From positions 5,236 through 69,235 of the forward strand of contig CAZFJX010000008.1 in assembly GCA_964519505.1 (NCBI GenBank): 64,000 nt of DNA. Direction: 5' to 3'. Numbering within the stretch: the stretch's first letter is position 1; every line of letters starts with the position of its first letter. A model generated the notes under the pieces. That model was not told the origin of the DNA and searched no databases. It saw only the letters and a program-made list of their open reading frames with translations. The stretch comes from an uncultured Desulfurococcales archaeon (GTDB taxonomy: Archaea > Thermoproteota > Thermoprotei_A > Sulfolobales > CAZFJX01). Both the position numbers and the translations under genes were made by a program. This document shows, piece by piece, positions 24,079 through 45,060 of this stretch.

Positions 24079-24783
24079 TTACTTGGCTGGCTTAGATGCC
24101 CTCTCTAAGAACTTCCTAACTAACTCTATATCTTCCTTAGGCACTACTTTCTCGTGGCAGAACCACCAGTCGAAACATTCGAATTTCTTAACCCTCTCTT
24201 CGGCTTCCTGAATAGTTGCTGCTGGCGGTACTATGATTGATTCACCTATTAACTCGTTGTTAGGCCAGTTAGCTGGTAATGCCCTACCGTACTTATCACT
24301 TATCTGTAGTGCCTTCACCAACCTCAGTATTTCGTCGATTAACCTACCGACATTTAGTGGGTAGTAAAGAATTGCCCTAATAACGCCCTTATCATCAACG
24401 ACGAATACGGCCCTAACAGTATGCGTCGCTGACTCAGCATGCAACATACCTAACCTCCTAGCAACAACCCCTTGAGGATCACCTATTATCGGGAACGGTA
24501 TTTCAACACCAAACCTCTCCTTAATCCACTCAATCCACTTAATATGACTAAACGTACTGTCAACACTAAGCCCTATTAACTCAGTATTTAGCTTCTTAAA
24601 GTCCTCATACCTCTTAGCAAAAGCAACAAACTCAGTAGTACATACTGGCGTGAAGTCAGCTGGATGACTAAACAGTACGAACCACTTACCCTTATAGTCA
24701 TCAGGTAGTACCTTAACACCATGAGTAGTTAGCACCTTCATTTCAGGAAACTTCTCACCAATTAAGGGTATCTGACCAGGCAT
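24079..24783 (-). CDS. Archaeal peroxiredoxin (Prx6/AhpC-type)
   Basis: [12 protein letters not shown] and CFDWWFC motifs. Start placed at ATG 24783 (MPGQ); the ORF track uses 24792. Confidence 0.93.
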
Positions 24784-24940
24784 ACATAACACCCCTTACA
24801 TATACCTTCGAGAAACCATATATGCAAGCTAGTATTTATTTATTATCTTTATAAAATTTCTATCACCAAAAGTTCGAGAATCAAACCAACATAAAAAATA
24901 TTGCTACGAAAAAGACATCAATCATTAACTTTAATGGTGA

Positions 24941-27613: not shown

Positions 27614-27982
27614 TTATGGAGACACCATGCTCAGCGCTTCACCTAGGAATGCTTCAAGCGAGTAGTTATGTAAGGGGTGAATTCTTCCATTCTTATGTTT
27701 ATGATGAGGGTGCGTCTTTACTTCTGGGTGGTGTGGGGCGTTATCATATCTTAATGCGACCTCCTTACCTACAATCAACTGGTATGGGTACCTAACAATC
27801 TTTCCAGATATAAGGAATTCACGTATGTGGGCCTCAAATCCCTCACTACATATTATGATTAAGCGAAGATATTCAGTATCCTCTACTACACGATGTTTCT
27901 CGATCTTAACTCTGCAATCCTTACCTCTAAGTCTTTCTTTAATAACCCTTATGACCTGTTGTAATCTTGTAGTTGCCGCCAT
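27614..27982 (-). CDS. tumE: DUF6516-family toxin (TumE-like)
   Basis: YQLI...LRYDNAPHHPEVKTHPHHKH signature. Confidence 0.8.
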   Translation of the reverse strand: MAATTRLQQVIRVIKERLRGKDCRVKIEKHRVVEDTEYLRLIIICSEGFEAHIREFLISGKIVRYPYQLIVGKEVALRYDNAPHHPEVKTHPHHKHKNGRIHPLHNYSLEAFLGEALSMVSP

Positions 27983-28263
27983 AGCTCTCTAAGCTCCTTT
28001 AACTCCTTTTCAAGTCTCTTCTTCTGCTCTAGAAGAGCTTCCCACTCCACAATATCGGGCTCTGAACCTTCGGGAAGATCCCATTCCCTCTCTCCTTGAA
28101 GCATTCTAAGAAAATCATCGCTTGATATGCCATACTTAGTCTCAAGCAGAGCTAACTCCTCATCTATTGCAACTAACTCACTCTGCAATTTCTTGATCTC
28201 TTCCTTCACAAACTTTACTAATGAATTTAAGGTCCTTTTAGAGATAGTGATGGTGCCTACCAA
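27949..28263 (-). CDS. tumA: Antitoxin (TumA-like)
   Basis: LETKYGISSDDF...DIVEWEAL; lies directly upstream of and overlaps the DUF6516 gene. Confidence 0.7.
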   Translation of the reverse strand: MVGTITISKRTLNSLVKFVKEEIKKLQSELVAIDEELALLETKYGISSDDFLRMLQGEREWDLPEGSEPDIVEWEALLEQKKRLEKELKELRELWRQLQDYNRS

Positions 28264-29201: not shown

Positions 29202-29789
29202 GTGTCCAACCCTTTAAGTACTGACGATATTTCTATGGAGTTATCTAGGGCTCTTAGGCTTTGGAGGTCTATAGCCGTTAAGGAACTAGAGTTAAGCGTG
29301 CCGCCCAGGGTTGGTGGTTTAGGTATCGGTGAGGTTAGGGAGGGTCTAGGCATTAGCTCAAGACCGTTCTTCACAAAGGTATTCGGTAGCGATAACTTAA
29401 CCTCCATAATGAGATCCGTAATTAAGTCCTTAGGTAGGTTTGGTGAAGGCATTAAGTACTTAGCCACATACACGTCGGGTTATGAGTTAGGTAGGAGGTT
29501 AGTTACTTCAGGAATCATTAGGAGTTTAGATGACTTACCAATAGCCTTTGTAGCTAATGGGGTAGGTCTCGTAGATGTGGTTAAGGAGAGTCTTAACCGT
29601 ATGGTCATAAACATATATGAGTGCTTAAGTTGCTACGCGTCAAAACCCGTGGGTAAGACCATGTGCTGGTTTGAGGCAGGTGCTTTAAGGGGTGTTCTTG
29701 AGTCATTATATAAGAATAATAAGGTTAAGGAGAAGGAGTGTTGGGGATTAGGGTACTCATTCTGTAGCTTCATAGTGGAGTTCGAGTAG
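29202..29789 (+). CDS. corQ: V4R-domain protein, CorQ-like CO-regulator partner
   Basis: GYELGRR, YECLSC, MCWFEAGALRG and VKEKECWGLGYSFCSF (V4R); heads a CODH cluster like Thermococcus corQ. Confidence 0.8.
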   Translation: MSNPLSTDDISMELSRALRLWRSIAVKELELSVPPRVGGLGIGEVREGLGISSRPFFTKVFGSDNLTSIMRSVIKSLGRFGEGIKYLATYTSGYELGRRLVTSGIIRSLDDLPIAFVANGVGLVDVVKESLNRMVINIYECLSCYASKPVGKTMCWFEAGALRGVLESLYKNNKVKEKECWGLGYSFCSFIVEFE

Positions 29790-29797
29790 GTGGATAC

Positions 29798-30913
29798 ATG
29801 ACACTAACCCTACTACTCAGACTAACAACCCGGTGTAGTGGTTGCGGTGCCCCATGCCCCTACACATCAAAACACAGCACTAATGAGGTAAGTACATATA
29901 TTAAGGACGTAATTAATGGGTTAACTAAGTTCGTAGATGAGGGTTTTGATGAGTCAGTAGTTCTGTGTCCAGTAAACTTAAGGGATGAATATCTCCATGA
30001 CCTAGTTAAGGTGCTTAAGGAGGTGAGTAATTCTGTTAAGGTATTCATACCCTTAAGTGAGGTTAAGTCATTAAGTAAGTACCTAGCTAGTATGCTTAAT
30101 GAGTTAGTTATAGTTGTTGGTAACATATCTACAGAACTACCTACTCAGTTAAGAACCTTAATTACTAACGGTATTGAGAACATATCGCTATATACCGTAC
30201 TAAGCCATAGCAGTAGTTTAGAGCTACTTAAGTGGGTTATTAGCGTAGCTAAGAGGTTCGGTGTTAGGGTTAGGGTTGGTGAGGCGCCATACATAGGTAA
30301 CCATATAGATGTTCATCAAAGACTAGTTAGGTATTGCTTAGGTATAGGGCTACCCTTCGGTAACCTCTATGGGTATAGGGCAGCAACAACTTTCATAAAC
30401 GACTACCCAGTAACTGTACTGTTTAAAGATCCGTCAGAATGTAGGTGTGTATACATAAACCCTGAAGGTAAGCTATGTAGATGCCCGTTAAGTAATGAAT
30501 GCCTAGACCTTAGGAACGCTAGGAGAGATATCATTCTTAACGTACTTAATAAGCCATGTAAGTTAGCTAAACCACTCCCCTACCCATCTATAAGGATAGA
30601 TGTCAAGCTACCTAACGGTATCACCATACCCTCAGAAATACTTCAGCTCCTAGAGCTCATAGACCACACTAGGTCATTAAGAAAAGCATGCTCGGTACTT
30701 GGTGTGTCTGTATCTACATGTATTGAGAAGTTAAGGAGGGTTGAGAGAGAGTTAGGTTCTAGACTCGTTGAGGGTTATAGGGGTGGTAGTAAGCATGGAT
30801 ATACTGTACTCACTAGCCTTGGTAGGGAGGTTCTTGAGGTTTATAGAGATGTTAGGGGCGCTATAATTGATAGCTTAATATCTAAGAACATAGTTAACTT
30901 CTCAATTGACTAA
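29798..30913 (+). CDS. corR: CorR-like transcriptional regulator: Cys-rich N-terminal domain plus C-terminal LysR/ModE-type wHTH
   Basis: LLELIDHTRSLRKACSVLGVSVS...LGSRLVEGYRGG...LTSLG wHTH; lies between corQ and cooF. Confidence 0.75.
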   Translation: MTLTLLLRLTTRCSGCGAPCPYTSKHSTNEVSTYIKDVINGLTKFVDEGFDESVVLCPVNLRDEYLHDLVKVLKEVSNSVKVFIPLSEVKSLSKYLASMLNELVIVVGNISTELPTQLRTLITNGIENISLYTVLSHSSSLELLKWVISVAKRFGVRVRVGEAPYIGNHIDVHQRLVRYCLGIGLPFGNLYGYRAATTFINDYPVTVLFKDPSECRCVYINPEGKLCRCPLSNECLDLRNARRDIILNVLNKPCKLAKPLPYPSIRIDVKLPNGITIPSEILQLLELIDHTRSLRKACSVLGVSVSTCIEKLRRVERELGSRLVEGYRGGSKHGYTVLTSLGREVLEVYRDVRGAIIDSLISKNIVNFSID

Positions 30914-30988
30914 GGACTTCGTATACTTACCCGTGTTCTAAAGCTCTTACCACGCCGGGGTTAAAAATAATTATTATCGTTAAGATAC

Positions 30989-31633
30989 TTGGGTGTTATT
31001 ATAGCATCGAATAACCCTGAATTCATTATCTACATAGACCCTGAGCGATGTATGGGTTGTAGGGCTTGCGAGATTGCTTGTGCCGTTGAGCACTCGCTCT
31101 CTAAGTCCATATATGAAGCACCTTACGAAATACCTAAACCTATACCTAGGATTAGGGTCTTACCTATAGACATTTTCTACGTACCAGCACGCTGCCAGCA
31201 CTGTGAGGATGCTCCATGCATCGCTGTATGTCCCACTAAGGCGATATCTAAGACTGATGAGGGCTTCGTAATAGTTGACCCTATGAAGTGCATTGGTTGC
31301 TTAATGTGTGCTTTAGCATGCCCCTTCGGTCACCCAAGATATAGTGCTGAGGAGAAGACCATGATTAAGTGTGATTTCTGCTACACTAGGGTTAGGGAAG
31401 GCAAGCTACCCGCATGTGTTGAGGCATGCCCAACAGGTGCGTTAAGATTTGGTAGGTTTGAGGAGGTTATGAAGGAGGTTGCTGAGGAGAAGATGAGAGC
31501 GGTAATTACTGGTAAGGCAGGCCCTGGACTTGTAGTTATTAAGCCTGTGAAGATAGAGGTTGAAGTTAAACCGGCACCTCCGGCTAAGGTATCTGATATT
31601 AAGTCCATGTATAAACCCGTTTCATGGTCGTGA
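30989..31633 (+). CDS. cooF: CooF 4x[4Fe-4S] electron-transfer subunit
   Basis: CMGCRACEIAC, CQHCEDAPCIAVCP, CIGCLMCALACP and KCDFC...PACVEACP motifs. Confidence 0.92.
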   Translation: MGVIIASNNPEFIIYIDPERCMGCRACEIACAVEHSLSKSIYEAPYEIPKPIPRIRVLPIDIFYVPARCQHCEDAPCIAVCPTKAISKTDEGFVIVDPMKCIGCLMCALACPFGHPRYSAEEKTMIKCDFCYTRVREGKLPACVEACPTGALRFGRFEEVMKEVAEEKMRAVITGKAGPGLVVIKPVKIEVEVKPAPPAKVSDIKSMYKPVSWS

Positions 31634-31652
31634 ATTTATTTAGGGTGAGAGC

Positions 31653-33563
31653 ATGGCCCGTACTAACAAATTTAGACTCCCCAAACTCCCCGCTAAGGAA
31701 ATCTCCATAGTGCCTGGGGTTAAGGAGCTTATAGAGAAGGCCGAAGAGGAGGGTGTTGAGTTAGTCTGGCATAGATTCCTAGAGCAACAACCACAGTGTG
31801 GCTTCGGGCTTCTCGGTATATGCTGTAGGAACTGTAATATGGGTCCATGTAGGATAGACCCATTTGGTTTCGGACCTACCAAAGGCGTGTGTGGAGCTAC
31901 AGCAGACACCATAGTAGCTAGGAATATAGTCAGAATGATAGCAGCTGGTGCTGCGGCTCACAGCGATCATGCTAGAGATATATGGAAGGTATTCCATGGT
32001 GTCGTTCACGGCGAGATTAAGGCCTACAAGATCACTGACTCAGCTAAGCTTAGGTGGTTAGCTCAGGTACTTGACATACCTACTGAAGGTAGGGATGATA
32101 TGGAGATAGGTAGGGATGTCGCTGCCGTATTGGAGAGAGAGTTCGCTAAGCAGGATGAGGAGCCTTTAGCTCTAGCTAAGGCGCTAGCACCTAAGAGGAG
32201 GCTTACGGTATGGGAGAAGGCGGGTATAATCCCTAGGAACATCGATAGGGAGATATGTGAGTGTATGCATAGGACTCACGTAGGTGTTGATGCTGACCCA
32301 GTAAGCTTAATACTCCACGGTGCTAGAACCGCCTTAGCTGACGGTTGGAGTGGTTCAATGATGGCTACCTTACTTAGCGACATATTGTTCGGCACGCCAA
32401 AGCCGTTAACAGCTGAGGCTAACTTAGGTGTTCTTAAGGAGGACTACGTAAACATAATAGTCCACGGACATAACCCAGTACTCTCAATGAAGATTGTTGA
32501 GGCAGCCATGAGTGATGAAGCTAGGAAGTTAGCTGAAGGGGTAGGTGCTAAAGGAGTTAACGTAGCCGGTATGTGCTGTACAGGTAATGAGGTGCTCATG
32601 AGGTTAGGTGTGCCGTTAGCTGGTAACTACCTAATGCAGGAGTTAGCCATTGCTACGGGAGCTGTTGAGGCGGTAATAGTTGATTACCAGTGTATATGGC
32701 CCGCAATAGTCAACGTAGCTAACTGCTACCACACTAAGGTAATAACTACAGAGCCTAAGATGAAGATACCCGGAGCACTACATATAGAGTTCGAGCCTGA
32801 GAAGGCTGATGAGCTAGCTATGAAGATTGTTAAGGTAGCTATAGAGAACTTCCGTAACAGGGTTAAGGAGAGGGTTAGGATACCTAGATACAGAATGAGG
32901 TTAATGGCAGGCTTTAGCGTTGAGGCTATAGTTGAGGCTCTAGGAGGTACTCTAGACCCGCTGATTGAGGCGCTAAAGAGCGGTGTGATTAAGGGTATCG
33001 TAGGTATTGTAGGCTGCAACAACCCGAAGGTAAGGCATAACTATAACCACGTAACCATAACTAAGAAGTTAATCAAGAACGACATACTAGTAGTAGGTAC
33101 TGGTTGCTGGGCTATAGCATCAGCCATAGAGGGACTCTTAACGCCCGAGGCAGCTAAGCTAGCCGGTCCAGGGCTTAGGGCTGTATGTGAGAAGCTAGGT
33201 ATACCGCCATGCCTTCACATGGGTAGCTGTGTTGACTGCTCAAGAATTCTAATAGCACTAAAGGCCCTCGCTGAGGCGTTAAACGTAGACATACCTGATT
33301 TACCTGCCGCTGGCTCAGCGCCTGAATGGATGAGTGAGAAGGCAGTAAGCATCGGTACCTACTTCGTGGCTTCAGGAGTATTCACGCATCTAGGCACGAT
33401 ACCACCAGTACTCGGTAGTAAGAAAGTGACCAAGCTCCTTACCGAGGACGTTGAGTACGTAGTTGGCGGTAAGTTCTACGTAGAGCCTAACCCAGAGAAG
33501 GCCGCTGAAACAATAATTAGGGTGATTGAGGAGAAGAGAAAGAAGTTAGGCTGGCCTACATAA
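31653..33563 (+). CDS. cooS: Anaerobic Ni,Fe carbon monoxide dehydrogenase catalytic subunit
   Basis: QCGFGLLGICCRNCNMGPC, GVCG, AHSDH, HGHNP, GMCCTGNE, DYQC, VGCNN, TGCW, MGSCVD and SEKA cover the B/C/D-cluster ligands and catalytic residues. Confidence 0.97.
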   Translation: MARTNKFRLPKLPAKEISIVPGVKELIEKAEEEGVELVWHRFLEQQPQCGFGLLGICCRNCNMGPCRIDPFGFGPTKGVCGATADTIVARNIVRMIAAGAAAHSDHARDIWKVFHGVVHGEIKAYKITDSAKLRWLAQVLDIPTEGRDDMEIGRDVAAVLEREFAKQDEEPLALAKALAPKRRLTVWEKAGIIPRNIDREICECMHRTHVGVDADPVSLILHGARTALADGWSGSMMATLLSDILFGTPKPLTAEANLGVLKEDYVNIIVHGHNPVLSMKIVEAAMSDEARKLAEGVGAKGVNVAGMCCTGNEVLMRLGVPLAGNYLMQELAIATGAVEAVIVDYQCIWPAIVNVANCYHTKVITTEPKMKIPGALHIEFEPEKADELAMKIVKVAIENFRNRVKERVRIPRYRMRLMAGFSVEAIVEALGGTLDPLIEALKSGVIKGIVGIVGCNNPKVRHNYNHVTITKKLIKNDILVVGTGCWAIASAIEGLLTPEAAKLAGPGLRAVCEKLGIPPCLHMGSCVDCSRILIALKALAEALNVDIPDLPAAGSAPEWMSEKAVSIGTYFVASGVFTHLGTIPPVLGSKKVTKLLTEDVEYVVGGKFYVEPNPEKAAETIIRVIEEKRKKLGWPT

Positions 33564-33580
33564 AATATTAGTGGGTATCT

Positions 33581-34384
33581 ATGGGCTTAAGGATAGTAGT
33601 GACGGGGAAGGGAGGGAGTGGTAAGACCACCATAGCCGCATTAACCTCAATAACTTTTTCGCTTAACGGCTATAGGGTTCTTGCACTAGATACCGACTCC
33701 GTACCTAACCTAGCCTTAAGTCTAGGCATACCCCAAGATAAGGCATCTAAGATAGTGCCATTAGTAAAGAATGAGGAGTTAATAGCTGAAAGAACAGGGG
33801 CTAAGCCTGGTGAGGGTTGGGGCATACTCTTTAGCTTAACACCTGATGTCTCAGATATAACCGATAGGTTTGGTGTTAAGGTTAATGAGAACCTAACTCT
33901 AGTTGTTGTTGGCAGTATAGACGTTAGTAAGGAGGGGTGCTTATGTCCAGCCATAGCCTTAGCTAAGGCATTCCTACTACATATACTCTTAAGACCTAAA
34001 GACGTAGTCGTAATAGACTCTGAAGCTGGTGCCGAAGTCTTCGGTAGAGGGCTCGCTGAGAGATTCGATGTTAACTTATGTGTTGCTGAGCCTACTCTAA
34101 AGTCATTAATGATAGCCAAGAAGTTAGTTAAGATGGGGAGGGAACTAGGTATTAAGCATAACTTCATAGTCATCAATAAGGTTATAGATACATTAAGAGC
34201 CGCTCAATTATATAGTGAGGTGTTTACTGATGAAAGACCAAGGTACTACATAGTTAGGTATAGTGATAACATAATTAAGTTAGAGAATAGTGGTAAAGGA
34301 CTTAATGAGCTCCCCCATAACGACCATGCACTTCAAGATGTGAAGCAACTAATTAATAGTCTTAGAAATATTTTCCTTAGGTGA
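33581..34384 (+). CDS. cooC: CODH nickel-insertion ATPase
   Basis: TGKGGSGKTT, DTDSVPNL, GCLCP and IDSEAGAE motifs. Confidence 0.93.
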   Translation: MGLRIVVTGKGGSGKTTIAALTSITFSLNGYRVLALDTDSVPNLALSLGIPQDKASKIVPLVKNEELIAERTGAKPGEGWGILFSLTPDVSDITDRFGVKVNENLTLVVVGSIDVSKEGCLCPAIALAKAFLLHILLRPKDVVVIDSEAGAEVFGRGLAERFDVNLCVAEPTLKSLMIAKKLVKMGRELGIKHNFIVINKVIDTLRAAQLYSEVFTDERPRYYIVRYSDNIIKLENSGKGLNELPHNDHALQDVKQLINSLRNIFLR

Positions 34385-34388
34385 GAAT

Positions 34389-34583
34389 ATGTGTGAGTCT
34401 AAAGCCGTAGTTGTTAAGGGATCTAAGGAGGAATTAGTACTTGACGATGTAGTTATGTTGGAGATCCTTGGTGATAGGTTAAGGCTTGTTAATATTGAGG
34501 GTAAGGAAAAGCTAATCACTGAATATAGGCTAGGTAGGATAGATTTCATAGGTCATAAGATATACCTGGTCCCTAAGGAGTAG
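34389..34583 (+). CDS. cooT: CooT-family nickel-binding protein
   Basis: MCES N-terminus and C-terminal IDFIGHKI; 64 aa, directly after cooC. Confidence 0.85.
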   Translation: MCESKAVVVKGSKEELVLDDVVMLEILGDRLRLVNIEGKEKLITEYRLGRIDFIGHKIYLVPKE

Positions 34584-34589
34584 CCTTAG

Positions 34590-36569
34590 GTGATTATGCT
34601 GGAAGGGGCTCTCCTTAAACTAATAGAATTTTTAGAAATGAATAACCCAATAACCCTATCCGTAATCCTTCTCGTAGCTTCCTTAATAGTAACCCCTTTT
34701 ATTAGGGGCTTAATAGGTGCTTACATATCGTTAGCCGTATGTTTATTTACTTCTTCAATACTTACGTTAATATCTCTCAAAGTCTTAATTACTGGGAGCG
34801 TAGTTACGTTAACAATACCTCTATTACCCTGGGCTAAGTACTACCCCATAGACTTATCTTCCGTTAAGTTAGTTATAGATCCATTAACAGCTTACTTCAC
34901 ATTACTCTTATCAATCATAGTATTCGCATCCTCACTCTACGGTTTCGGTTACGTACTTAGGTTCAGAGGTAAGGAGCACTTAGGTTGGTACGGCTTTAAT
35001 TACTCACTATTCTTCCTAGCTATGTTCCTCACATTAAGCGTTAGGGACTTCATACTATTCATAATCTTCTGGGAGTTAATGACTCTCTCATCACAATTCT
35101 TAGTATCTTATGAGAAGGAAAAGCCTAGAGCCGTTAAAGCAGGGATTAAGTACTTCTGTATAAGTAAGTTCGGTGCTGAATACATGTTAATTATAGCGAT
35201 AACATTAACTACCTTACTAGCTATGACGACCTCATTTAGTGGTGTGGGTGAGTTCCTAAAGAACCTCCAGATCAATGACCCAACACTTTATTACTTACTT
35301 ACCTCATTCTTCATGTTAGGCTTATTAATTAAGTGTGCTGCAGTACCATTCCATAACTGGCTACCTGAGGCGCATCCTGAAGCTCCGGCTAACGTATCAT
35401 CACTACTCAGCGGTACGATGATTAAGGTACCTATATACATGATGTTAAGGCTATTACTAGACCTATCTAACCCAACACCAGCATGGGGTTTAGCCATAGC
35501 TATTATTGGGTGCGTAACTCTATTCATAGGTACCATGTATGCACTTATTCAAGTAGACTCCAAGGTCTTACTAGCCTACCACAGTATAGGTCAGATAGGC
35601 TACATACTCTTAGCTTTAGGTACATCCATATACCTCTACAGTCTAGGAAATTACTTATTGGCATTCATAGCGCTGACTGCCACCTTATATCACGCAATTA
35701 ATCATGCAGTATTCAAGTCTTTACTATTCTTAACGGCTGGTTCAGTGGTCTTTAGGTTAGGTACTAGAGATCTGAACGTTCTTGGTGGTTTAGGTAAGTA
35801 CATGCCCTTTACAGCGGTGTGTGCGTTAATAGCTGCGTTATCTATATCTGGTGTTCCGCCATTCAACGGGTTCGCTAGTAAATGGATGATTTACTTCTCA
35901 ACAATGACTAGTTCAACCATACTTTCTTTCCTAGGCGCTATAGCTATGTTTATAAGTAGCGTAACAACAGCCAGTTTCATCAAGTACTTCACAACACTCT
36001 TCACTAGAGAGGCTAAGGTAGACGTAAGTAAGGTTAAGGAAGTGCCAGCACCTATGGCTATAGCTCAGGGAGTTCTAGCTATACTATGTATATTATTAGG
36101 TCTTTACCCAATGCTAGCTATTAAGGCTAGTAAGTCGCTAGCTATGTATCTAGGTTTAAGCATACCTAAGGTCATTTCTTACGGACCCATAGTTGTTACG
36201 GTACCAGGTAAGGCATCAATATCCTTACTATTAATAGCTACGTTACTAGTCATAACCATACCTATAGTCATGGCCGTAACTAAGCCTAAGATCGTCCCTA
36301 GACCCTGGGTAGCGGGTGTTGGTATCAGACCCCAACACTCGATACCAGCAAGTAGCTACTATAGGGATTTTGAGCTTGTATATTACGAACCTTACGGGCT
36401 AGGTAGGAGGCTATATAGCGCCCTCTGTGTGGACTTCATTAACTGGCTAAGGAGGTCATTACCTAAGTTGTCACTAGGTCTTGAGAACCCCCAGAACTCG
36501 CTACCTATATACATAGCCATAGCGCTACTCACATACTTAACGATAATTGCGGGATTGAGGTGGTGGTGA
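34590..36569 (+). CDS. hyfB: Group 4 hydrogenase antiporter-like membrane subunit (HyfB/HycC/NuoL-like)
   Basis: FWELMT, PFHNWLPEAHPEAP, LAYHSIGQIGY, HAVFKSLLFL and PPFNGFASKW motifs. Confidence 0.9.
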   Translation: MIMLEGALLKLIEFLEMNNPITLSVILLVASLIVTPFIRGLIGAYISLAVCLFTSSILTLISLKVLITGSVVTLTIPLLPWAKYYPIDLSSVKLVIDPLTAYFTLLLSIIVFASSLYGFGYVLRFRGKEHLGWYGFNYSLFFLAMFLTLSVRDFILFIIFWELMTLSSQFLVSYEKEKPRAVKAGIKYFCISKFGAEYMLIIAITLTTLLAMTTSFSGVGEFLKNLQINDPTLYYLLTSFFMLGLLIKCAAVPFHNWLPEAHPEAPANVSSLLSGTMIKVPIYMMLRLLLDLSNPTPAWGLAIAIIGCVTLFIGTMYALIQVDSKVLLAYHSIGQIGYILLALGTSIYLYSLGNYLLAFIALTATLYHAINHAVFKSLLFLTAGSVVFRLGTRDLNVLGGLGKYMPFTAVCALIAALSISGVPPFNGFASKWMIYFSTMTSSTILSFLGAIAMFISSVTTASFIKYFTTLFTREAKVDVSKVKEVPAPMAIAQGVLAILCILLGLYPMLAIKASKSLAMYLGLSIPKVISYGPIVVTVPGKASISLLLIATLLVITIPIVMAVTKPKIVPRPWVAGVGIRPQHSIPASSYYRDFELVYYEPYGLGRRLYSALCVDFINWLRRSLPKLSLGLENPQNSLPIYIAIALLTYLTIIAGLRWW

Positions 36570-36570
36570 A

Positions 36571-37488
36571 GTGCTTTGGTTAAGACTAACGTACATAGTG
36601 CTTAACGTGCTGGTTGCCTTACTACTAGCTCCGTTACTGCACGGTATTGAAAGAAAGGTTAAGGCTAAGGTACAGAATAGGATCGGGCCCCCAATACTTC
36701 AGACTATATATGATTTAAGTAAGCTCTATAGGAGGGCCCCAATAGGTTATAGTATCGCCTCATGGATCTTAATATCCATGTCATTTAGCTACGCTCTAAT
36801 TTTAACTTTACTAGTACCCACCGCGTTTAACGTATCGCTAGGCTTTACTAGTGACTTAGTACTGGTTATTTACTTATTAACGTCAACATCCGTACTTATG
36901 GCTTTAGCCGCCATAGCTGGTGCCAGTCCTTACTCAGGGGTTGGATCTTCTAGGGAGGCTTCTTTAGTTATGGCCATTGAGTTAGTAATCGCATTCATCA
37001 TTGGTACACTAGCAGTTAGTTATGGAGTATTTACACTACCTAAACTACTCCCCATATGGGACTTAGGGTTTAAGCCATCAGTACTTGGTGCTTTAACCTT
37101 GCTAGCCATACTGACTTATATTGAGGGTCTTAGATTACCTTTCGACATACCCGAGGCCGAACCCGAGATAGCTTCAGGTGTTTACGTTGATTTTAGTGGT
37201 AGGATTCTTGCCGCAGCATTACATACGCATCTATTGAGGAGGTTGCTAGTTACCTCACTATTTATTGATTTCTTACTACCTAGGGAGTGGTTTTACTTCA
37301 AGTTAGGTGGTTACTTAATTGACTTAAGTATAGTTCCTTACTTAATCATAATGGTTTTGGCATCAGTTATTTATGCTGTTACTGAGGCATTATTCGGTAG
37401 GTATAGAATCGATGCTGCTCTCAAACTCCTTAAGGCCATGGCTATAATGTCGTTGGGGGTGATGGTGCTTGCGTTCGCAGGTTACTGA
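36571..37488 (+). CDS. hycD: Group 4 hydrogenase NuoH-like membrane subunit
   Basis: ERKVKAKVQNRIGPP, GSSREA and RLPFDIPEAEPE motifs. Confidence 0.9.
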   Translation: MLWLRLTYIVLNVLVALLLAPLLHGIERKVKAKVQNRIGPPILQTIYDLSKLYRRAPIGYSIASWILISMSFSYALILTLLVPTAFNVSLGFTSDLVLVIYLLTSTSVLMALAAIAGASPYSGVGSSREASLVMAIELVIAFIIGTLAVSYGVFTLPKLLPIWDLGFKPSVLGALTLLAILTYIEGLRLPFDIPEAEPEIASGVYVDFSGRILAAALHTHLLRRLLVTSLFIDFLLPREWFYFKLGGYLIDLSIVPYLIIMVLASVIYAVTEALFGRYRIDAALKLLKAMAIMSLGVMVLAFAGY

Positions 37489-39109
37489 AGTAGCTAAGAA
37501 GCTTAAGGCGTTTGGTGAGGTATATGTACGTGATGGTGTGGTTAAGGTAGTTACTGATGAGGATAGACTTAAGGATCTAATCCTATATATGCTTCAATCA
37601 CTTAACGCTAGGTTAGCAACTACGGTGGGTGTTGATACTAGAGTATTAACGCACAATTATAGGGTTATCCATATTTTCTCTATTGATGATCTAAAGATAT
37701 ATGTCCTTGTCGAGCTTAAAGTACCTAAGGAGAGACCCGCTGTACGGTCAATAACACCTCTAATACCCGGTGCTGACTGGTCTGAGCGTGAGGTACGTGA
37801 CCTACTAGGTATTGAGTTTAAGGGGCACCCGACTAAGGAGTACCTAATTAGGAGACCTAAACTCTGGCTTGAGCACGCTTACCCTCTAAGGAAGGACTAT
37901 CCGCATAGCAAGAAGGTTTTAGTACCTTCACCACAATACGATATCGAACCTACTAAGGGGTTCTCAGTAGCCATAGGCCCCTATCACCCAGCGCTTCATG
38001 AGCCAGAGCACTTTGAGTTAGTGGTTGATGGTGAGAGAATAGTTGAAGCTAGGTACTGCGGCTTTATGGTCCATAGGGGTATTGAGAAGCTTGGTGAATC
38101 TAGGTTAGATATATATCAGATACCCTTCATAGCTGAGAGAATATGCGGTATATGCGGGTTTACACATAGTGTAGCCTATACGCAGGCTGTTGAGTCAGCG
38201 CTAGGCATAGATCCCCCAGAGAGAGCTAAGTACATAAGGTCAATCCTACTTGAGATTGAAAGGGTACATAGTCACTTACTATGGTTTGGAGTGCTTTTCC
38301 ATGTGTTAGGCTTTGACACAGGCTTCATGAATGTATGGAGAATTAGAGAGCCTGTTATGGAGCTTGCTGAGTTATTGACAGGAAACAGAAAGACTTACGG
38401 TGTAAATAAGGTTGGTGGCGTTAGGAGAGATATCGATGAGTCTAAAGTGAAGAAGGTAAAGGAGGTCGTTAATAGGGTACGTAAGGAGTTTACCGAACTC
38501 ATAGATAAGTTCTTAAACTTATCAGAAGTTATTGAGAGGACCAAGGGTGTTGGCGTACTTGAGGTTAGTGACGCTAAGAAACTATGCGTCGTTGGCCCTA
38601 ATGCTAGGGCTTCAAGTATTGACATAGATACCAGGAGGGATCATCCCTACGCAGCATACCCTAACGCTGAGTTTAAGGTACCTGTAAGTGATGGGTGTGA
38701 CGTGTATTCTAGGGCTTTAGTACGTAGGGATGAGATCTTAGAGTCCCTAAGCATTATTGAGCAATTAGTTAGTGATTTACCTAAGACACCATTGTCTGTT
38801 GAGGAAGTACCGTTTAAGGAGTTAAGTGAGGGTGTTGGGGCTACCGAAGCACCTAGAGGTGAGAACGTTCATTACGTAATTACAGGTAGGTCTAGAAAGC
38901 TATTTAGGTGGCGTGTTAGGGCACCGTCATACGCTAACATACCTTCACTACTATACATGCTTAGAGGCCAACACCTAGCTGATGCCCCAGCAATAATAGC
39001 CAGCATAGATCCGTGCTTCTCATGCACTGATAGAGTACTGGTGATTAACCTAAGATACGGTACTAAGAGATACGTGACTTTAAGAAAGTTGAGGTCTTTA
39101 GGTGAGTAG
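37469..39109 (+). CDS. hycE: Group 4 [NiFe]-hydrogenase large subunit (NuoC-NuoD fusion)
   Basis: L1 ERICGICGFTH and L2 DPCFSCTDR; N-terminal EREVRDLLGIEFKGHP; EAPRGE. Confidence 0.95.
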   Translation: MRSQVTEVAKKLKAFGEVYVRDGVVKVVTDEDRLKDLILYMLQSLNARLATTVGVDTRVLTHNYRVIHIFSIDDLKIYVLVELKVPKERPAVRSITPLIPGADWSEREVRDLLGIEFKGHPTKEYLIRRPKLWLEHAYPLRKDYPHSKKVLVPSPQYDIEPTKGFSVAIGPYHPALHEPEHFELVVDGERIVEARYCGFMVHRGIEKLGESRLDIYQIPFIAERICGICGFTHSVAYTQAVESALGIDPPERAKYIRSILLEIERVHSHLLWFGVLFHVLGFDTGFMNVWRIREPVMELAELLTGNRKTYGVNKVGGVRRDIDESKVKKVKEVVNRVRKEFTELIDKFLNLSEVIERTKGVGVLEVSDAKKLCVVGPNARASSIDIDTRRDHPYAAYPNAEFKVPVSDGCDVYSRALVRRDEILESLSIIEQLVSDLPKTPLSVEEVPFKELSEGVGATEAPRGENVHYVITGRSRKLFRWRVRAPSYANIPSLLYMLRGQHLADAPAIIASIDPCFSCTDRVLVINLRYGTKRYVTLRKLRSLGE

Positions 39110-39623
39110 CGTGGGTAGGTTAGACATACTTAAGAAGGCTTTAGGTATTGGCGTAGTCACTAGGAAGTATCCTTACGTGAGGGTAGAGCCACCTGAAGGG
39201 TTTAGGGGTAAGCCAATCATAGATCCAGACAAGTGTTTAGGTTGTGGGGCCTGCGCTGAGGCATGCCCGCCTAAAGCAATAAGTACTGAGGACAGTCAAG
39301 AAGAGGGTGCTAGGTATGTTAAGATATTCTACGGTAGGTGTATTTTCTGCGGTATGTGTGCTGACGTATGCCCCGCTAACGCCATAGAACTAAGTAAGGA
39401 GTTTGAGCTAGCCTCTAAAGAACGTAACGACCTCTACCTAGTTATTAAAGTACCTATGGTTAAGTGCTCAGTATGCGGTAAGTACTTCACAACAGCACCA
39501 CTACTACTTAAATCACTAGAGAACGTCCCTGAACACTTACGCCCTATCATGACCGTATGCCCTGAATGCAAGTCTAAGCTCTCCTCTAGATTCACATCAT
39601 TCGCTAGGAGGGTGGGTTCATGA
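39102..39623 (+). CDS. hycF: Group 4 hydrogenase 2x[4Fe-4S] subunit (NuoI-like)
   Basis: CLGCGACAEACP and CIFCGMCADVCP; C-terminal CSVC...CPEC. Confidence 0.9.
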   Translation: MSSVGRLDILKKALGIGVVTRKYPYVRVEPPEGFRGKPIIDPDKCLGCGACAEACPPKAISTEDSQEEGARYVKIFYGRCIFCGMCADVCPANAIELSKEFELASKERNDLYLVIKVPMVKCSVCGKYFTTAPLLLKSLENVPEHLRPIMTVCPECKSKLSSRFTSFARRVGS

Positions 39624-40192
39624 GCATACCTAAGCTCTTTAGAAGGAGCTTATGGGTATTCCACCTAAATACTGGGGCGTGTAATGCCTGTGATATAGAG
39701 ATACTTGACCTAATAACCCCCTATCATGACGTGGAGAGGTTCGGTATAAAGTTAGTTGGTTCACCAAGACACGCGGACTGCATACTCCTTACGGGACCCA
39801 TAAACGTAAATACGTTACCTCACGTGATTAAGGCTATTGAAGCCATACCTGAACCTAAGGTGCTGATAGCTATAGGTTCATGCGCTTGCGGTGGTGGGAT
39901 ATGGTTTGACTCATACTCAACACTCGGTGGTGTTCCTAACCTCATTAAGTACCTAAAGGAGCATGGGTTACCAATACCTAACGTTATTTACGTACCCGGA
40001 TGCCCACCTAAGCCTGAGGCTATGATTTATGGAATAGCTGTTGGTTGGGACTTAGTCAGGCAGAAACAGGTACATGAGGTTAAGGTAGTTAAGGTTAGTG
40101 AGGAAGGTGTTAAGGCTATTGAGGGGTTAAGTAGAGAGCTTAAGGAGTCGTTAGAGAGGTTTAAGAGATTCTTAAGAGGTGTTAAGTCATGA
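39620..40192 (+). CDS. hycG: Group 4 [NiFe]-hydrogenase small subunit (NuoB-like)
   Basis: CNACDIE, GSPRHAD, GSCACGGG and PGCPP motifs. Confidence 0.93.
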   Translation: MSIPKLFRRSLWVFHLNTGACNACDIEILDLITPYHDVERFGIKLVGSPRHADCILLTGPINVNTLPHVIKAIEAIPEPKVLIAIGSCACGGGIWFDSYSTLGGVPNLIKYLKEHGLPIPNVIYVPGCPPKPEAMIYGIAVGWDLVRQKQVHEVKVVKVSEEGVKAIEGLSRELKESLERFKRFLRGVKS

Positions 40193-40467
40193 TACCTCAG
40201 TCATTAGTAGATATCTATCTAATGATAATTAGCTCAGTCTTCCTACTAGCGTTCACCCTATACACTATTAGAGTATTTAAAGGGCCTACAATCCCTGATA
40301 TGGTTATCGCAATAGACTGCCTATCCTTTGACTTAGCAGTGTTCTTAGGGTTACTCTCAGTGTTATACAGAACACCATTCTTAATTACGGGCGCCTTACT
40401 CCTAGCCCTATGGGCATTCTTATTTGATTTATTCATAGCTAAATACATACTTAAGAAACTGAGGTGA
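40189..40467 (+). CDS. mnhF: Mrp/Mnh Na+/H+ antiporter subunit F
   Basis: KGPTIPDMVIAID; 3 TM. Confidence 0.85.
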   Translation: MIPQSLVDIYLMIISSVFLLAFTLYTIRVFKGPTIPDMVIAIDCLSFDLAVFLGLLSVLYRTPFLITGALLLALWAFLFDLFIAKYILKKLR

Positions 40468-40862
40468 TGCCCATGGAGATAAACATACCGTCACCAATAA
40501 GCGATGTGGTGCTACTTATCGGTATGGTGTTAGTAAGTATAGGAGCCGTATGCGACTTACTGGCCTCTATAGGCCTTCTTAGATTCCGTAACTTCTTCTT
40601 AAGGATGCATGCAGCTACTGTAGGTATTATCGGCGGCGCTGTAGTGCCCTTAATAGGTGTTGGACTAATCGCTCTCTCACTAAATGCTTTCGGCAGCTTT
40701 ACGTTACCATTCACGCTGTTAAGTATAGCTACGGCATCCTTCATAATGGTCGTAGCCCCCATAGCGACCCATGCATTAGCTAATGCAGCATATAGGGCAT
40801 CAACACCCAAGCCTGAACCCTTAATTTATGACGCTATTAAGGAAGAGGGTGGTGGATCATGA
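40464..40862 (+). CDS. mnhG: Mrp/Mnh antiporter subunit G
   Basis: GLLRFRNFFLRMHAAT and APIATHALANAAY motifs. Confidence 0.88.
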   Translation: MMPMEINIPSPISDVVLLIGMVLVSIGAVCDLLASIGLLRFRNFFLRMHAATVGIIGGAVVPLIGVGLIALSLNAFGSFTLPFTLLSIATASFIMVVAPIATHALANAAYRASTPKPEPLIYDAIKEEGGGS

Positions 40863-41119
40863 TCATATTCACACTAGCACTCCTGACGTTCCTAACGACT
40901 ATAGCGTTAGCAGCGACCATTAAGGCTATAGCCGAGAAGGACCTAGTTAAGGCTGTAGTATTCTCAGCACTTCAGTCAGTTGCTTACGCAATAATTTATG
41001 GCGTACTCATGGCCCCAGACATACTTTATGCGTACATAGCTGTAGGTGTAGGCATATATCCAGTCATAGTTCTTTACGCAATAGCCAAGACATACAGGTT
41101 CGAAGGTGGTAGGAAATGA
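40859..41119 (+). CDS. Mrp/Mnh antiporter subunit B N-terminal part (DUF4040-like)
   Basis: KDLVKAVV...LMAPD...VGVG motif. Confidence 0.8.
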   Translation: MIIFTLALLTFLTTIALAATIKAIAEKDLVKAVVFSALQSVAYAIIYGVLMAPDILYAYIAVGVGIYPVIVLYAIAKTYRFEGGRK

Positions 41120-41883
41120 GGTGGTTCATAGCTCTAGTAATAGCCCTAACCGCTGTAGTACTCGTTAAGGCCGTAATGGATGGTTGCTTAGGATACATAC
41201 TGACTACGGACGTTAGGTCAATTGCTGAGTTTTACTTAAGGAGTACCTACAACGTATTTAATAAGACCCACTGGGCTGCTAGTCCTGAAGCAGTTAACGC
41301 TATACTATGGGATTATAGAGGGTTAGATACGGTCTATGAAACTACAGTACTATTCATCGCCTTACTAGGGTGCTTAGTCTTAGCCACTAAGCTTAGTAGT
41401 GAGTTTATGGAGGTAGGTGAGTGGTTAACTATAATAGCTAGGACGGGCGTTAAGTTAATAATTATGTTCATAGCCATCATAGCCCTAATACTAGCGTTTA
41501 AAGGCTATGTAACCCCAGGAGGGGGCTTTCAAGGTGGTTCAGCATTCGCTATAATACCCTTACTCATACTTGCCGCATTCTCATGTAAGTACCTTGAGAA
41601 CTTAGGCTATAGGGTCAATAAAGCCGAGGCTTTAAGGAGCTTAGGGCTTCTAGCCATAGCCGCTATAGCAGTACTTCCATTCATATTCTTAAGTGCTTAC
41701 TTCCTACAGAACCAGCCTAAGCCCTGGATACCTATAGGTATCCCTCACGTAATTACCTTCATATATACTGGGGGAACAATACTCTTTTACAACTTAGCTG
41801 AGTTAGTGGTTGTTAGTATGGAGTTCACAGCTATATTCATAGTACTAACACTACTTAGAGGTGAGGAACATGGAGGGCATTAA
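41116..41883 (+). CDS. mnhB: Mrp/Mnh antiporter subunit B
   Basis: VNAILWDYRGLDTVYE and TPGGGFQGG motifs. Confidence 0.88.
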   Translation: MRWFIALVIALTAVVLVKAVMDGCLGYILTTDVRSIAEFYLRSTYNVFNKTHWAASPEAVNAILWDYRGLDTVYETTVLFIALLGCLVLATKLSSEFMEVGEWLTIIARTGVKLIIMFIAIIALILAFKGYVTPGGGFQGGSAFAIIPLLILAAFSCKYLENLGYRVNKAEALRSLGLLAIAAIAVLPFIFLSAYFLQNQPKPWIPIGIPHVITFIYTGGTILFYNLAELVVVSMEFTAIFIVLTLLRGEEHGGH

Positions 41884-42277
41884 TTATTTATTAGCTACTT
41901 ACGTATATGCATCATTAATAGTGATAGTAGCGGTAGCAATTTACGGAATTATAGCTAAACCTAACCTAATTAAGAAGGTAATAGCCCTAACCATACTTGG
42001 CGATACCGTAAATACATTCATTATATTGATAGGTTATAGGTTCGTAAGTAAGCCTAAACCACCAGTAATCCCCACGCTCCATCCAAGTCCTGAGGACATA
42101 ATTAACATAGTTAAGAACGGTGTTGACCCATTACCTCAGGCATTCGTAATTACCGCCATAGTGATTAATCTAGCAATAACTGCTTTCTTAGTCATGCTCG
42201 TAGTTAGGATCTATAGAGCCTACGGGACTTTGGAGATGAACCTAATAGAGAGAAGGAAGGGTGAGGAACATGGGTAA
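41861..42277 (+). CDS. mnhC: Mrp/Mnh antiporter subunit C
   Basis: NLIKKVIAL and DPLPQAFVITAIVI motifs. Confidence 0.9.
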   Translation: MRNMEGINYLLATYVYASLIVIVAVAIYGIIAKPNLIKKVIALTILGDTVNTFIILIGYRFVSKPKPPVIPTLHPSPEDIINIVKNGVDPLPQAFVITAIVINLAITAFLVMLVVRIYRAYGTLEMNLIERRKGEEHG

Positions 42278-42770
42278 GGCATTAGCTTATGTAGGTGTGG
42301 GGCTAATCACGTTTATACTCTATATAGCGTTTGTAGGCTCTCTAGAACCTACTGACTTAGTGTTCGCTATAGTGATATCGTGCGTGGTTGCTGCGTTAGT
42401 GGGTGGTGTGGTTGTTGAGCATGGTGGTAAGTTATTTAGCTTACGTAGGTTAGGCTACTTAATAGCTTACGCCATACATTACCTACTAATTGTTGAGGTT
42501 AAGGCTCATGCAGGCCTTATTAAGAGGATAATTACTGGTGAGGTTAAGCCAGCCATAGTTAAAGTCCCTTACGGGGTAAAGACCGATTACGCCTTACTAA
42601 TGGTGGCTAACTCAATAACGAACACCCCAGGTACTGTAGTTGTTGATGTTGATGAGGGTAAGGGAGTAATGTACGTCCACTGGATATTCGCTAAGGCCTT
42701 AGAGCCTAAGGAGGCTAGGGAGCACGTCTCTAAGCTATTCGAGAAGTACGCTTCTAAAGTACTTGATTAG
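42261..42770 (+). CDS. mnhE: Mrp/Mnh antiporter subunit E
   Basis: KPAIV and ANSITNTPGTVVVD...YVHW motifs. Confidence 0.88.
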   Translation: MRNMGKALAYVGVGLITFILYIAFVGSLEPTDLVFAIVISCVVAALVGGVVVEHGGKLFSLRRLGYLIAYAIHYLLIVEVKAHAGLIKRIITGEVKPAIVKVPYGVKTDYALLMVANSITNTPGTVVVDVDEGKGVMYVHWIFAKALEPKEAREHVSKLFEKYASKVLD

Positions 42771-42778
42771 GTGGTACC

Positions 42779-44347
42779 ATGGAGGTGCCTCCACCCCCCC
42801 AATTAGTACCTACCGAGGTAGTACCACCTATATCCATACTCACACTAACTACGTTAGCTTTCCTAATACCCTTACTTCACTTAGCTACACATAGCCGTAG
42901 GGTCCCTGAAGTATTGACATTACTAGGTACTGCCTTCGTCGCATACATAAACATCTGTATGGCCAAGGAAGTCCTAATTAGTGGGAATAGGGTTGTTTAT
43001 GGTTTTGGTGGTTGGCCAGCACCTATAGGTATTGTTTATGAGGTCGATCATTTATCAGCTATATTCTCAGTTTTGATCACTACGGTCCTATTCTTCATAG
43101 CCTTATATAGTATTGGCTACTTCAGTAAGGGTCATGAGGGTAGGCTATACCTATACTACACCTTACTCTTGCTTGTTGAGGTCGGTATGCTTGGCGTTAT
43201 ATATACTTGCGATATATTCCATATGTTCGTTATGCTTGAGGTCATGTCTATAGCGGCTTACGTACTTGTTTCTTACGAGCTTGGGAGGGTTGCTTTATCA
43301 GCATCGTCTAAGTACGCCATATTTGGTGCTTTAGCAACCACGATATTCCTACTAGGTGTTGCTTACGCTTACGGGTGTTTCGGCACGGTCAATATGGCTG
43401 ATATAGCTGCTAAGGTTAGAGGTACTGAATTCCCGGTAAGTACTGTTGTTGGTGTACCTTCACTAGGTGCCTTAATACTCTCACTCACAGTATTATGGAT
43501 GTTTACGTTTAAGTCAGCAATATTCCCGAACCACTTCTGGCTACCTGATGCACATAGTGAAGCACCAACACCCATATCGGCACTCCTTTCAGGCCTTGTA
43601 GTTAAGGTGGGTATTTACGGGTTCATAAGGATATATATCACCGTATTAGGTATTGATTTAAGTAGGGTATTTCTTGAGGTACTATTCATACTTGGTTTGG
43701 TTACGGCATTCATAGGTTCTCTTTCAATGCTTTTTGAGTATGATGTTAAGAGGTTAATCGCCTATAGCACCATACTTAACTTAGGGCTTATAGCTCTAGG
43801 CGTCTCGATAGCTACTCAAGAAGGACTTGCATCAACACTTAGCTACGTTATTAACCACGCAGTAACTAAGGCTTTAGCCTTCATGTCTATAGGTATAGCT
43901 ATTAACGCGTTAGGTAGTAGGGACTTAAGGGTGCTTGAAGGTGTCGGCAGGGTATGTAGGGTTGTTGGCATAGCGTTCGCTACATCCATGATAGCCCTTG
44001 GGGGTATACCACCTTTAAACATGTTTATGGCTAAGCTATACTTATATGTAGCTATACTTAGGGCTAAAGGGCTGTGGTGGGCTTTAATAGCGGTAGCACC
44101 ATCAGTCATAGGCTTTATAGGCTACATGAGGGCTATGTACTCAGTATGTATTAAGCCATATAGAGCAGGTAAGCCCGTAAAAACACCCTTATCCTCAGGT
44201 ATAGCCGTAGCCATACTTACTGCAGCCGTACTTGTGTTAAGTATACTAACACCTTACTTAATGAGTAAGTACTTAGTAGGTGCAGCTAGCCAAATAACTA
44301 ACTATGTAACATATATAGAGGTAGTGAAGGAGTACCTAACGCCTTAA
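42779..44347 (+). CDS. mnhD: Mrp/Mnh antiporter subunit D
   Basis: DIFHMFVMLEVM, HFWLPDAHSEAPTPISA, KRLIAYST and GIPPLNMFMAK motifs. Confidence 0.9.
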   Translation: MEVPPPPQLVPTEVVPPISILTLTTLAFLIPLLHLATHSRRVPEVLTLLGTAFVAYINICMAKEVLISGNRVVYGFGGWPAPIGIVYEVDHLSAIFSVLITTVLFFIALYSIGYFSKGHEGRLYLYYTLLLLVEVGMLGVIYTCDIFHMFVMLEVMSIAAYVLVSYELGRVALSASSKYAIFGALATTIFLLGVAYAYGCFGTVNMADIAAKVRGTEFPVSTVVGVPSLGALILSLTVLWMFTFKSAIFPNHFWLPDAHSEAPTPISALLSGLVVKVGIYGFIRIYITVLGIDLSRVFLEVLFILGLVTAFIGSLSMLFEYDVKRLIAYSTILNLGLIALGVSIATQEGLASTLSYVINHAVTKALAFMSIGIAINALGSRDLRVLEGVGRVCRVVGIAFATSMIALGGIPPLNMFMAKLYLYVAILRAKGLWWALIAVAPSVIGFIGYMRAMYSVCIKPYRAGKPVKTPLSSGIAVAILTAAVLVLSILTPYLMSKYLVGAASQITNYVTYIEVVKEYLTP

Positions 44348-44376: not shown

Positions 44377-45060
44377 ATGGATATAGCTGAGTATCAGAGA
44401 TTAAGTAAGGTATTCGTAAAGCAATCAGAAAAACTCATAAACCGCATTAAGAATGTAAAGACTTTCAGAATAAACGTAAGAGAGGGCCCATGCAGGAAGT
44501 ACTGCAGGTCAGGTAGCTTACCTAAGATTAAGGAATTGCTCAGGAATTTCAACATTAAGGTATTCTATAAGGACGCATCAATAACTTGCAGTAATATCAA
44601 TGAAGTCCTTAAGAACTTTAAGACCTATTTTGATGCTTGGCTAGTTAATTATATTGATGAGCATAGCTCTAAGGGAGGGATTCTTAGGGTCATTACTGAA
44701 GTTTCCATACTTGCTTTAGGTATAGTTATGATGTTCAGTCTCAAGGACATACCCATACCGAATGAGGTAATCAGCATAGTCGCTACAACACTAATAATAT
44801 CGTCAGCCTCATCATCAATAATGTACGCAGTAAGAACATTTACTGAAGGCAGGCTAGGTAAGTTACTTAAAGCTCATGAATTCATGCTTAAAGTAAATAG
44901 CATGTATAGGGCTAAATACGAATACCTAAGTAACTACATATATAAGGTGCTATCTCTCGCTGAAAAATGCAGTGAGATAGAGAAAGGGAAAGTAAATGAG
45001 GACTCACTTAAAGTTAAATGCCTAAGTAAAACAAAAGTAGTGGTTTATGTAGCATCATAA
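44377..45060 (+). CDS. Hypothetical 2-TM membrane protein
   Basis: 227-aa ORF with two central hydrophobic segments, 29 nt after mnhD. No family recognised. Confidence 0.6.
   Translation: MDIAEYQRLSKVFVKQSEKLINRIKNVKTFRINVREGPCRKYCRSGSLPKIKELLRNFNIKVFYKDASITCSNINEVLKNFKTYFDAWLVNYIDEHSSKGGILRVITEVSILALGIVMMFSLKDIPIPNEVISIVATTLIISSASSSIMYAVRTFTEGRLGKLLKAHEFMLKVNSMYRAKYEYLSNYIYKVLSLAEKCSEIEKGKVNEDSLKVKCLSKTKVVVYVAS

Follow-up and report, generated by a model that had tools for sequence, protein, structure and literature searches.

A Thermococcus-type gene cluster for CO dehydrogenase, group 4 hydrogenase and Mrp antiporter, apparently regulated, in an uncultured archaeon of the Thermoproteota

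An uncultured archaeon from deep-sea hydrothermal vents, belonging to the phylum Thermoproteota, carries a cluster of genes that probably specifies a membrane-bound respiratory complex drawing energy from the reaction CO + H2O -> CO2 + H2. The cluster occupies positions 29202-44347 of the 64,000-nucleotide stretch of DNA analysed here (the window; contig CAZFJX010000008.1 of assembly GCA_964519505.1, positions 5,236 to 69,235), and consists of 18 consecutive open reading frames (ORFs), all on the + strand: the pair corQ-corR, then cooF-cooS-cooC-cooT, five hydrogenase genes, and seven Mrp/Mnh genes. Judged from homology and gene order, this is a complete and apparently regulated cluster for CO dehydrogenase (CODH), a group 4 hydrogenase and an Mrp module, of the type found in Thermococcus. 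The genes are tightly packed, with neighbours spaced from -23 to +19 nt and a 75-nt gap between corR and cooF as the sole exception, and searches with Pfam and NCBIfam profiles placed the expected domains in 18/18 of the products. An initial annotation of the same DNA had already described 18 co-oriented genes with small gaps or overlaps and had likened them to the Codh-Mch-Mnh cluster with corQR of Thermococcus; the ORFs are as described, and the likeness extends to collinearity gene for gene.

Assignment of the catalytic subunits draws on profile scores, conserved residues and solved structures. CooS scores 758 bits against the TIGR01702 equivalog (cut-off 478), and in an alignment its D-, B- and C-cluster ligands and acid/base residues (C49, C57, C58, C61, C66, C80, H103, H271, C309, C347, C455, C485, C526 and K563) are invariant across 14 homologues. 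Its best solved relative is the CODH of Thermococcus sp. AM4 (6T7J), with which the ligand residues align. In a phylogenetic tree CooS groups with that of T. onnurineus, the E-1 reference, in a 43-sequence clade (support 92/95); the T. onnurineus enzyme belongs to Ni-CODH clade E, structural group E-1 (Inoue et al. 2019; PMC6344411). The HycE-type large subunit of the hydrogenase retains both the L1 motif (RICGICGFTH at 224) and the L2 motif (DPCFSCTDR at 514), and the HycG small subunit has cysteines at 21, 24, 88/90 and 128. The solved structure closest to the large subunit is HycE of the E. coli formate hydrogenlyase (7Z0S, E=1e-129), with the Pyrococcus Mbh (6CFW) further away, which fits a group 4b, Mrp-linked enzyme. 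Motif check and alignment thus agree with the earlier statement that the CooS ligands, the hydrogenase L1 and L2 motifs and the small-subunit cysteines are all intact.

The start of cooF affects one of these metal-binding motifs. A public gene call for an identical CooF sequence begins at an internal ATG at 31052 and yields a product of 193 aa, so that Cys21, the first ligand of the first [4Fe-4S] motif, is lost. A TTG start at 30989 retains Cys21, and the N-terminal stretch that it adds is conserved in relatives.

The genomic context of CooS bears on the metabolism it might serve. Acetyl-CoA synthase (ACS; PF03598) has no match in the 99.6%-complete genome, with control genomes positive, which extends to the whole genome the earlier claim that no ACS gene is present and means that CooS is not part of a Wood-Ljungdahl (CODH/ACS) enzyme. 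The host genome likewise has no member of the 4-hydroxybutyryl-CoA dehydratase family, and from these two absences the host is probably a heterotroph that uses CO as a source of energy and not of carbon. T. onnurineus needs organic supplements on CO. The host genome encodes a single CooS, three [NiFe] large subunits besides that of the cluster, and, elsewhere, the [NiFe] maturation protein HypD.

The lack of any obvious route to autotrophy, together with the three further large subunits, would also suit a complex working mainly as a low-flux device for survival or CO detoxification, or as a redox valve independent of ferredoxin, in a heterotroph that ferments, respires sulfur and does not grow on CO. 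A role for Ni-CODH linked to an energy-converting hydrogenase (ECH) in survival under electron-acceptor limitation is argued for facultative anaerobes in a 2026 study (PMC13077300). Such a limited role is unlikely here, because the full Mnh module and dedicated regulator pair match those of T. onnurineus, an organism capable of growth on CO with organic supplements, and because the cluster stays intact across samples.

If the cluster serves energy conservation, as we favour, CO would be oxidised by cytoplasmic CooS at the Ni,Fe C-cluster, and electrons would leave through the B and D clusters of CooS for the four [4Fe-4S] clusters of CooF. From CooF they would travel by way of the HycG and HycF Fe-S subunits to the [NiFe] site of the HycE-type subunit, where protons would be converted to H2. 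The small drop in free energy would power ion translocation via the NuoH-like and NuoL-like membrane subunits, and the seven-subunit Mnh (Mrp) module would turn that translocation into, or add to, an Na+/H+ gradient available to the archaeal ATP synthase. Nickel would be loaded into CooS by CooC and CooT, and CorQ, a V4R-domain protein, and CorR, which has a winged helix-turn-helix (wHTH) domain, would turn the operon on when CO is present. Enzyme activity, ion coupling and the presumed coupling ion are all assigned in this scheme by homology. The c subunit of the host's ATP synthase (G000:C2:69035-69460 (-)) is an A-type, duplicated four-helix protein of ~165 aa, in which the carboxylate is replaced in hairpin 1 (LPMTQTFYG) and retained in hairpin 2 (AVYEEFFG); we take it to resemble the one-site 16-kDa c subunit of Pyrococcus/Thermococcus.

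Regulation of the cluster is predicted from corQ and corR, which lie directly upstream of cooF and whose roles are assigned at 34-44% identity. In T. onnurineus, CorQR activates the CO-dependent H2-producing cluster (PMC4791640; PMC10570040), and by homology a comparable CO-dependent control by CorQR would be expected in the vent archaeon. Six cysteines of CorR (Cys13, Cys20, Cys57, Cys215, Cys229 and Cys254) are kept in 10 orthologues, including those of T. onnurineus and Thermofilum, and may bind a metal or an Fe-S cluster with which CO is sensed. The gap between corR and cooF contains a TATA-like TTAAAAATAA box at 30961-30970, 19-28 nt upstream of the cooF TTG start. This spacing, read from the sequence alone, suggests a separate and leaderless transcript for the structural operon downstream of corQR.

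The host is represented by a metagenome-assembled genome (MAG) that totals 1.64 Mb over 50 contigs, with a completeness of 99.56% and a contamination of 1.08%. Six independent assemblies contain the cluster together with 7.5 kb of upstream flank at 99.93-99.98% nucleotide identity, with all ORFs open, and the downstream junction with the next 8 kb, checked by exact look-up of MnhD, is present in four. The assemblies that share these junctions differ in assembler and in sample. Furthermore, the flanks of the cluster have the tetranucleotide composition typical of the genome, and the histidyl-tRNA synthetase (HisRS) that the contig also encodes shares up to 63% identity with those of members of the same order. 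The locus as a whole is present, at >96% of sampled words, in seven metagenomes from hydrothermal vents or marine sediments.

These observations bear on the possibility, raised in the initial annotation as a potential refutation, that the contig is chimeric. A chimera is excluded by the two junctions, each of which recurs unchanged in separately made assemblies (six for the upstream one, four for the downstream one). An artefact of assembly or binning, in which the cluster derives from a co-occurring Thermococcus or some other organism, might be entertained because Thermococcales share the architecture and occur in vent metagenomes, but it is so improbable as to be almost negligible: besides the shared junctions, the typical flanks and the HisRS, CooS clusters with sequences of the host's own order and not with those of Thermococcales, and identity to T. 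onnurineus, gene by gene, is only 34-74%.

Several observations weigh against a functional, CO-regulated respiratory complex. A search for RNA runs found none with the locus, the runs listed for it being DNA metagenomes in 19/19 cases. The hydrogenase and Mnh subunits are only 37-54% identical to characterised ones, and CorR only 34% identical to that of T. onnurineus. The ATP synthase c subunit has no clear Na+-binding ET motif, so that coupling through Na+ is uncertain. Finally, the tetranucleotide profile of the cluster correlates with that of the genome at r=0.931, against a genome mean of 0.976, which places it in the 1st percentile of 15-kb chunks. This atypical profile could reflect a fairly recent acquisition; codon bias in membrane proteins could equally explain it.

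Taken further, the same profile might indicate an island of recent transfer, silent or ill integrated in the host and with no physiological role. The phylogenetic discord between CooS, with its nearest relatives in one family of the order (f4), and HisRS, closest to those of three others (f7, f8 and f6), would be in keeping with such an island, as would the toxin-antitoxin-like pair just upstream, a TumE-like toxin gene with a small MJ0235-like gene. Nevertheless, a silent island is very improbable, given that 18/18 ORFs and all catalytic residues are intact and that the locus is fixed in the populations of several samples. Nor does the DNA carry a mobile-element signature, with no tRNA in the window and no integrase or flanking repeat at the cluster. 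The GC content of the cluster (43%) is close to that of the genome (41%), and composition is skewed anyway where genes for membrane proteins abound.

The distribution of the cluster has consequences for how novel it can be said to be. The host is alone in both its GTDB genus and its GTDB family; its order numbers 325 species and also holds Desulfurococcaceae, Pyrodictiaceae, Zestosphaera and Pyrofollis. Desulfurococcaceae are placed under Sulfolobales in GTDB r226, and the host order is thus a broad group of Desulfurococcales plus Sulfolobales; the initial guess of a Desulfurococcales-like host was accordingly a sound one. A CooS homologue is found in 36 of the 325 species. A complete CooS at 75-87% identity to that of the host is present in 16 other species, from families f2, f3, f4 and f10, and one genome of family f7 (G321) has a split CooS gene, 71% identical over its main piece. 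The cooFSCT-hydrogenase-Mnh arrangement of the host recurs in five genomes (G036, G125, G127, G130 and G212), in four of which corQR immediately precede it, and also in a MAG of the Thermococci (L006). In five genomes (G200, G131, G117, G002 and G321) the clusters are cut by contig ends and agree as far as the sequence reaches. With the host included, a complete CooS of this type is present in 17 species of the order, and in six of these the hydrogenase-Mnh genes are attached. The nearest relative, GCA_053990015.1, has a CooS 86.5% and a HycE 62% identical to those of the host, with corQR 3.4 kb away.

With a complete CooS in 16 other species and the whole cluster in five, the initial proposal that the host would extend carboxydotrophy to a new group cannot be upheld. 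It had also been anticipated, since a cooS-hydrogenase cluster in Zestosphaera tikiterensis was read as carboxydotrophic hydrogenogenesis in 2019 (St John et al. 2019, as cited in PMC11467010). A 2026 survey of 306,260 genomes has two Thermoproteota with Ni-CODH/ECH among the table entries listed in its available part (PMC13077300), compared with the 17 species found here, and on that comparison the extent of the trait in the order is under-reported, yet not unknown. A bolder reading, which we offer as a tentative possibility, is that hyperthermophiles which oxidise CO and release hydrogen form a broad, uncultured guild in at least five families of the order, far commoner than in recent surveys, that the Thermococcus-type codh-mch-mnh cluster originated in these Thermoproteota and passed from them to Thermococcales, and that the host is the first representative of a family with no other sequenced species.

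The host cluster leaves the understanding of the system itself unchanged. Its value is as a high-quality example from a family-level lineage in which no other species has been sequenced, and as support for CO-driven proton respiration being patchy but widespread among Thermoproteota of vents and hot springs. Growth on CO is yet to be demonstrated for any species of the order, and the genome therefore also provides a concrete target for cultivation, with an inoculum of vent deposit, a CO headspace and a supplement of organic carbon.

One question raised by the shared architecture is whether, and in which direction, the genes moved between phyla. The host CooS falls in a clade (96/92) with a genome of family f4 and metagenomic sequences, nested in the 43-sequence clade described above, which is a polytomy of about seven subclades, six of them mostly of Thermoproteota and one of Thermococcales (100/100). 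A quick tree had placed Thermococcales within a grade of Thermoproteota; in the careful tree this nesting collapses to the polytomy, and a monophyletic Thermoproteota CooS is not rejected by the approximately unbiased (AU) test (p=0.319). The inter-phylum transfer implied in the initial annotation is upheld as far as the cluster is clearly shared across phyla, and no direction can be assigned to it. Within the order, the intermixing of families f3 and f10 in the CooS tree, the affinity of the host HisRS for families f7, f8 and f6 and not f4, and the tetranucleotide profile each hint, weakly, at transfers.

Two further observations concern the spread of this CODH type. The CooS of Desulfurobacterium crinifex (Aquificota; P0072, on a 1.79-Mb contig) nests inside the Thermococcus CooS clade, a placement that points to transfer from an archaeon to a bacterium. 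In a MAG of Candidatus Asgardarchaeum abyssi (L001; JBECUL010000002.1), corQR-cooFSCT stand with a hydrogenase of Thermofilaceae type, and CooS is sister to that of a Thermofilaceae MAG; either an Asgard archaeon acquired this cluster by transfer, or the contig was mis-binned.

Table 1. Genes and other features of the cluster and its surroundings, in window coordinates, with amino acid identity to T. onnurineus NA1 where given for the single gene; identities of the hydrogenase subunits and of the Mnh subunits are 37-54% and 39-54%, respectively. Functions are predicted.
Feature	Coordinates	Strand	Evidence	Identity
HisRS gene	20429-21739	-
Flavodiiron-type protein (ODP metallo-beta-lactamase + flavodoxin) and 1-Cys peroxiredoxin genes	within 22771-24792 and 27614-28263	-
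corQ, V4R-domain protein, 195 aa, putative CO-responsive co-regulator	29202-29789	+	PF02830 V4R, E=7.9e-14	44%
corR, 371-aa putative regulator, C-terminal LysR/ModE-type wHTH	29798-30913	+	HTH_1 at residues 282-343; ModE repressor domain	34%, full length
corR-cooF intergenic region, candidate promoter of structural operon	30914-30988	.	TATA-like TTAAAAATAA box, read from sequence
cooF, 4x[4Fe-4S] electron-transfer protein	30989-31633	+	Fer4_11, E=3e-27; 16 Cys in four motifs	55%
cooS, Ni,Fe CODH catalytic subunit, clade E, E-1 type	31653-33563	+	Prismane/TIGR01702	74%
cooC, Ni-insertion ATPase	33581-34384	+	CbiA/ArsA-type P-loop; GKGGSGKT and C120-x-C122 motifs	60%
cooT, small Ni chaperone, 64 aa	34389-34583	+	PF10133 on identical product in other assemblies; Cys2 present	45%
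Antiporter-like hydrogenase membrane subunit (HyfB/MbhH/NuoL-like), 659 aa	34590-36569	+	Proton_antipo_M, E=5.7e-55; best NCBIfam, hydrogenase 4 subunit B
HycD/NuoH-like membrane subunit	36571-37488	+	PF00146 (NADHdh), E=2.5e-36
Hydrogenase large subunit, 546 aa, fused NuoC-like and [NiFe] domains (HycE type, group 4b)	37469-39109	+	Complex1_30kDa + NiFeSe_Hases + Complex1_49kDa
HycF-like 2x[4Fe-4S] subunit, 173 aa	39102-39623	+	Fer4_7, E=6e-20; two CxxCxxCxxxC motifs and two CxxC pairs
Hydrogenase small subunit (HycG/NuoB-like)	39620-40192	+	Oxidored_q6, E=3.5e-24; four proximal-cluster Cys
MnhF/MrpF	40189-40467	+	PF04066
MnhG/MrpG	40464-40862	+	PF03334
MbhD-like (part of MrpA C-terminal region)	40859-41119	+	PF13244
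MnhB/MbhE-like	41116-41883	+	PF04039 + PF20501
MnhC (NuoK-like)	41861-42277	+	PF00420 (Oxidored_q2)
MnhE	42261-42770	+	PF01899, E=8e-31
MnhD, antiporter-like subunit	42779-44347	+	Proton_antipo_M + Proton_antipo_N; best NCBIfam, Na+/H+ antiporter subunit D
227-aa ORF	44377-45060	+	One hydrophobic segment near residue 100

The genes around the cluster (Table 1) include an ORF of 227 aa that begins 29 nt past mnhD and may share a transcript with the operon; no Pfam or NCBIfam profile matches it, and it is missing downstream of every related cluster examined. Upstream are genes for a flavodiiron-type protein and a 1-Cys peroxiredoxin, typical oxygen defences of anaerobes. Across the order, HisRS genes come in two forms. 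Families f6, f7 (genus g23), f8 and f10 (genus g42) have one that is 52-63% identical to the gene of the host, with f11 at 45-49%, and families f2, f3, f4, f9, f13 and most of f10 have solely a form that is 29-35% identical. This pattern suggests an old replacement or xenologous displacement within the order.

Among named systems, the closest counterpart is the codh-mch-mnh3 cluster with corQR of T. onnurineus NA1 (CP000855 930903-952795; around TON_1018/1023/1031), whose 18 genes correspond one for one to those of the host, in identical order and of near-identical lengths, also without an ACS gene and likewise with a fused, HycE-type large subunit. The T. onnurineus cluster performs CO-dependent H2 production (PMC4791640; PMC10570040), and its counterpart here, in a different phylum, is predicted to do so. 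The two differ in HycF, which is a single 173-aa ORF in the host but is called in the T. onnurineus record (L144 17380-17876) as a pair of ORFs, 91 and 99 aa long, that overlap; the split may reflect a frameshift, or an annotation split, in the reference strain.

Among crenarchaeal lineages, Thermofilum alone has been demonstrated to grow hydrogenogenically on CO (PMC6687684), its cultured example being T. carboxyditrophus 1505, and comparison was made through MAGs of Thermofilum and Thermofilaceae. The Thermofilum CODH-ECH shares the corQ-corR-cooF-cooS-cooC-cooT front end with the host, and the CooS proteins are 73-78% identical. However, the Thermofilum-type hydrogenase (locus L146) is simpler, with seven genes, separate 30-kDa and 49-kDa subunits, and no Mnh/Mrp module. 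The host has a fused large subunit and seven Mnh genes, and its architecture is therefore that of Thermococcus and not that of Thermofilum. Zestosphaera tikiterensis (Desulfurococcaceae), of the same order as the host, has a CooS 75% identical and an arrangement in which corR-cooFSCT are followed by a group 4b hydrogenase, but its HycE is only 45% identical and no Mnh genes occur within 5 kb downstream. More distant are the CooS-CooF-CooMKLXUH systems of Carboxydothermus hydrogenoformans and Rhodospirillum rubrum, with a group 4c ECH. In these bacterial systems CooS belongs to clade F, the ECH has six subunits and lacks Mrp, and CooA, a haem sensor, takes the place of CorQR (PMC6344411; PMC13077300), and yet the overall chemistry and logic are shared, with CODH passing electrons through CooF to an energy-converting hydrogenase.

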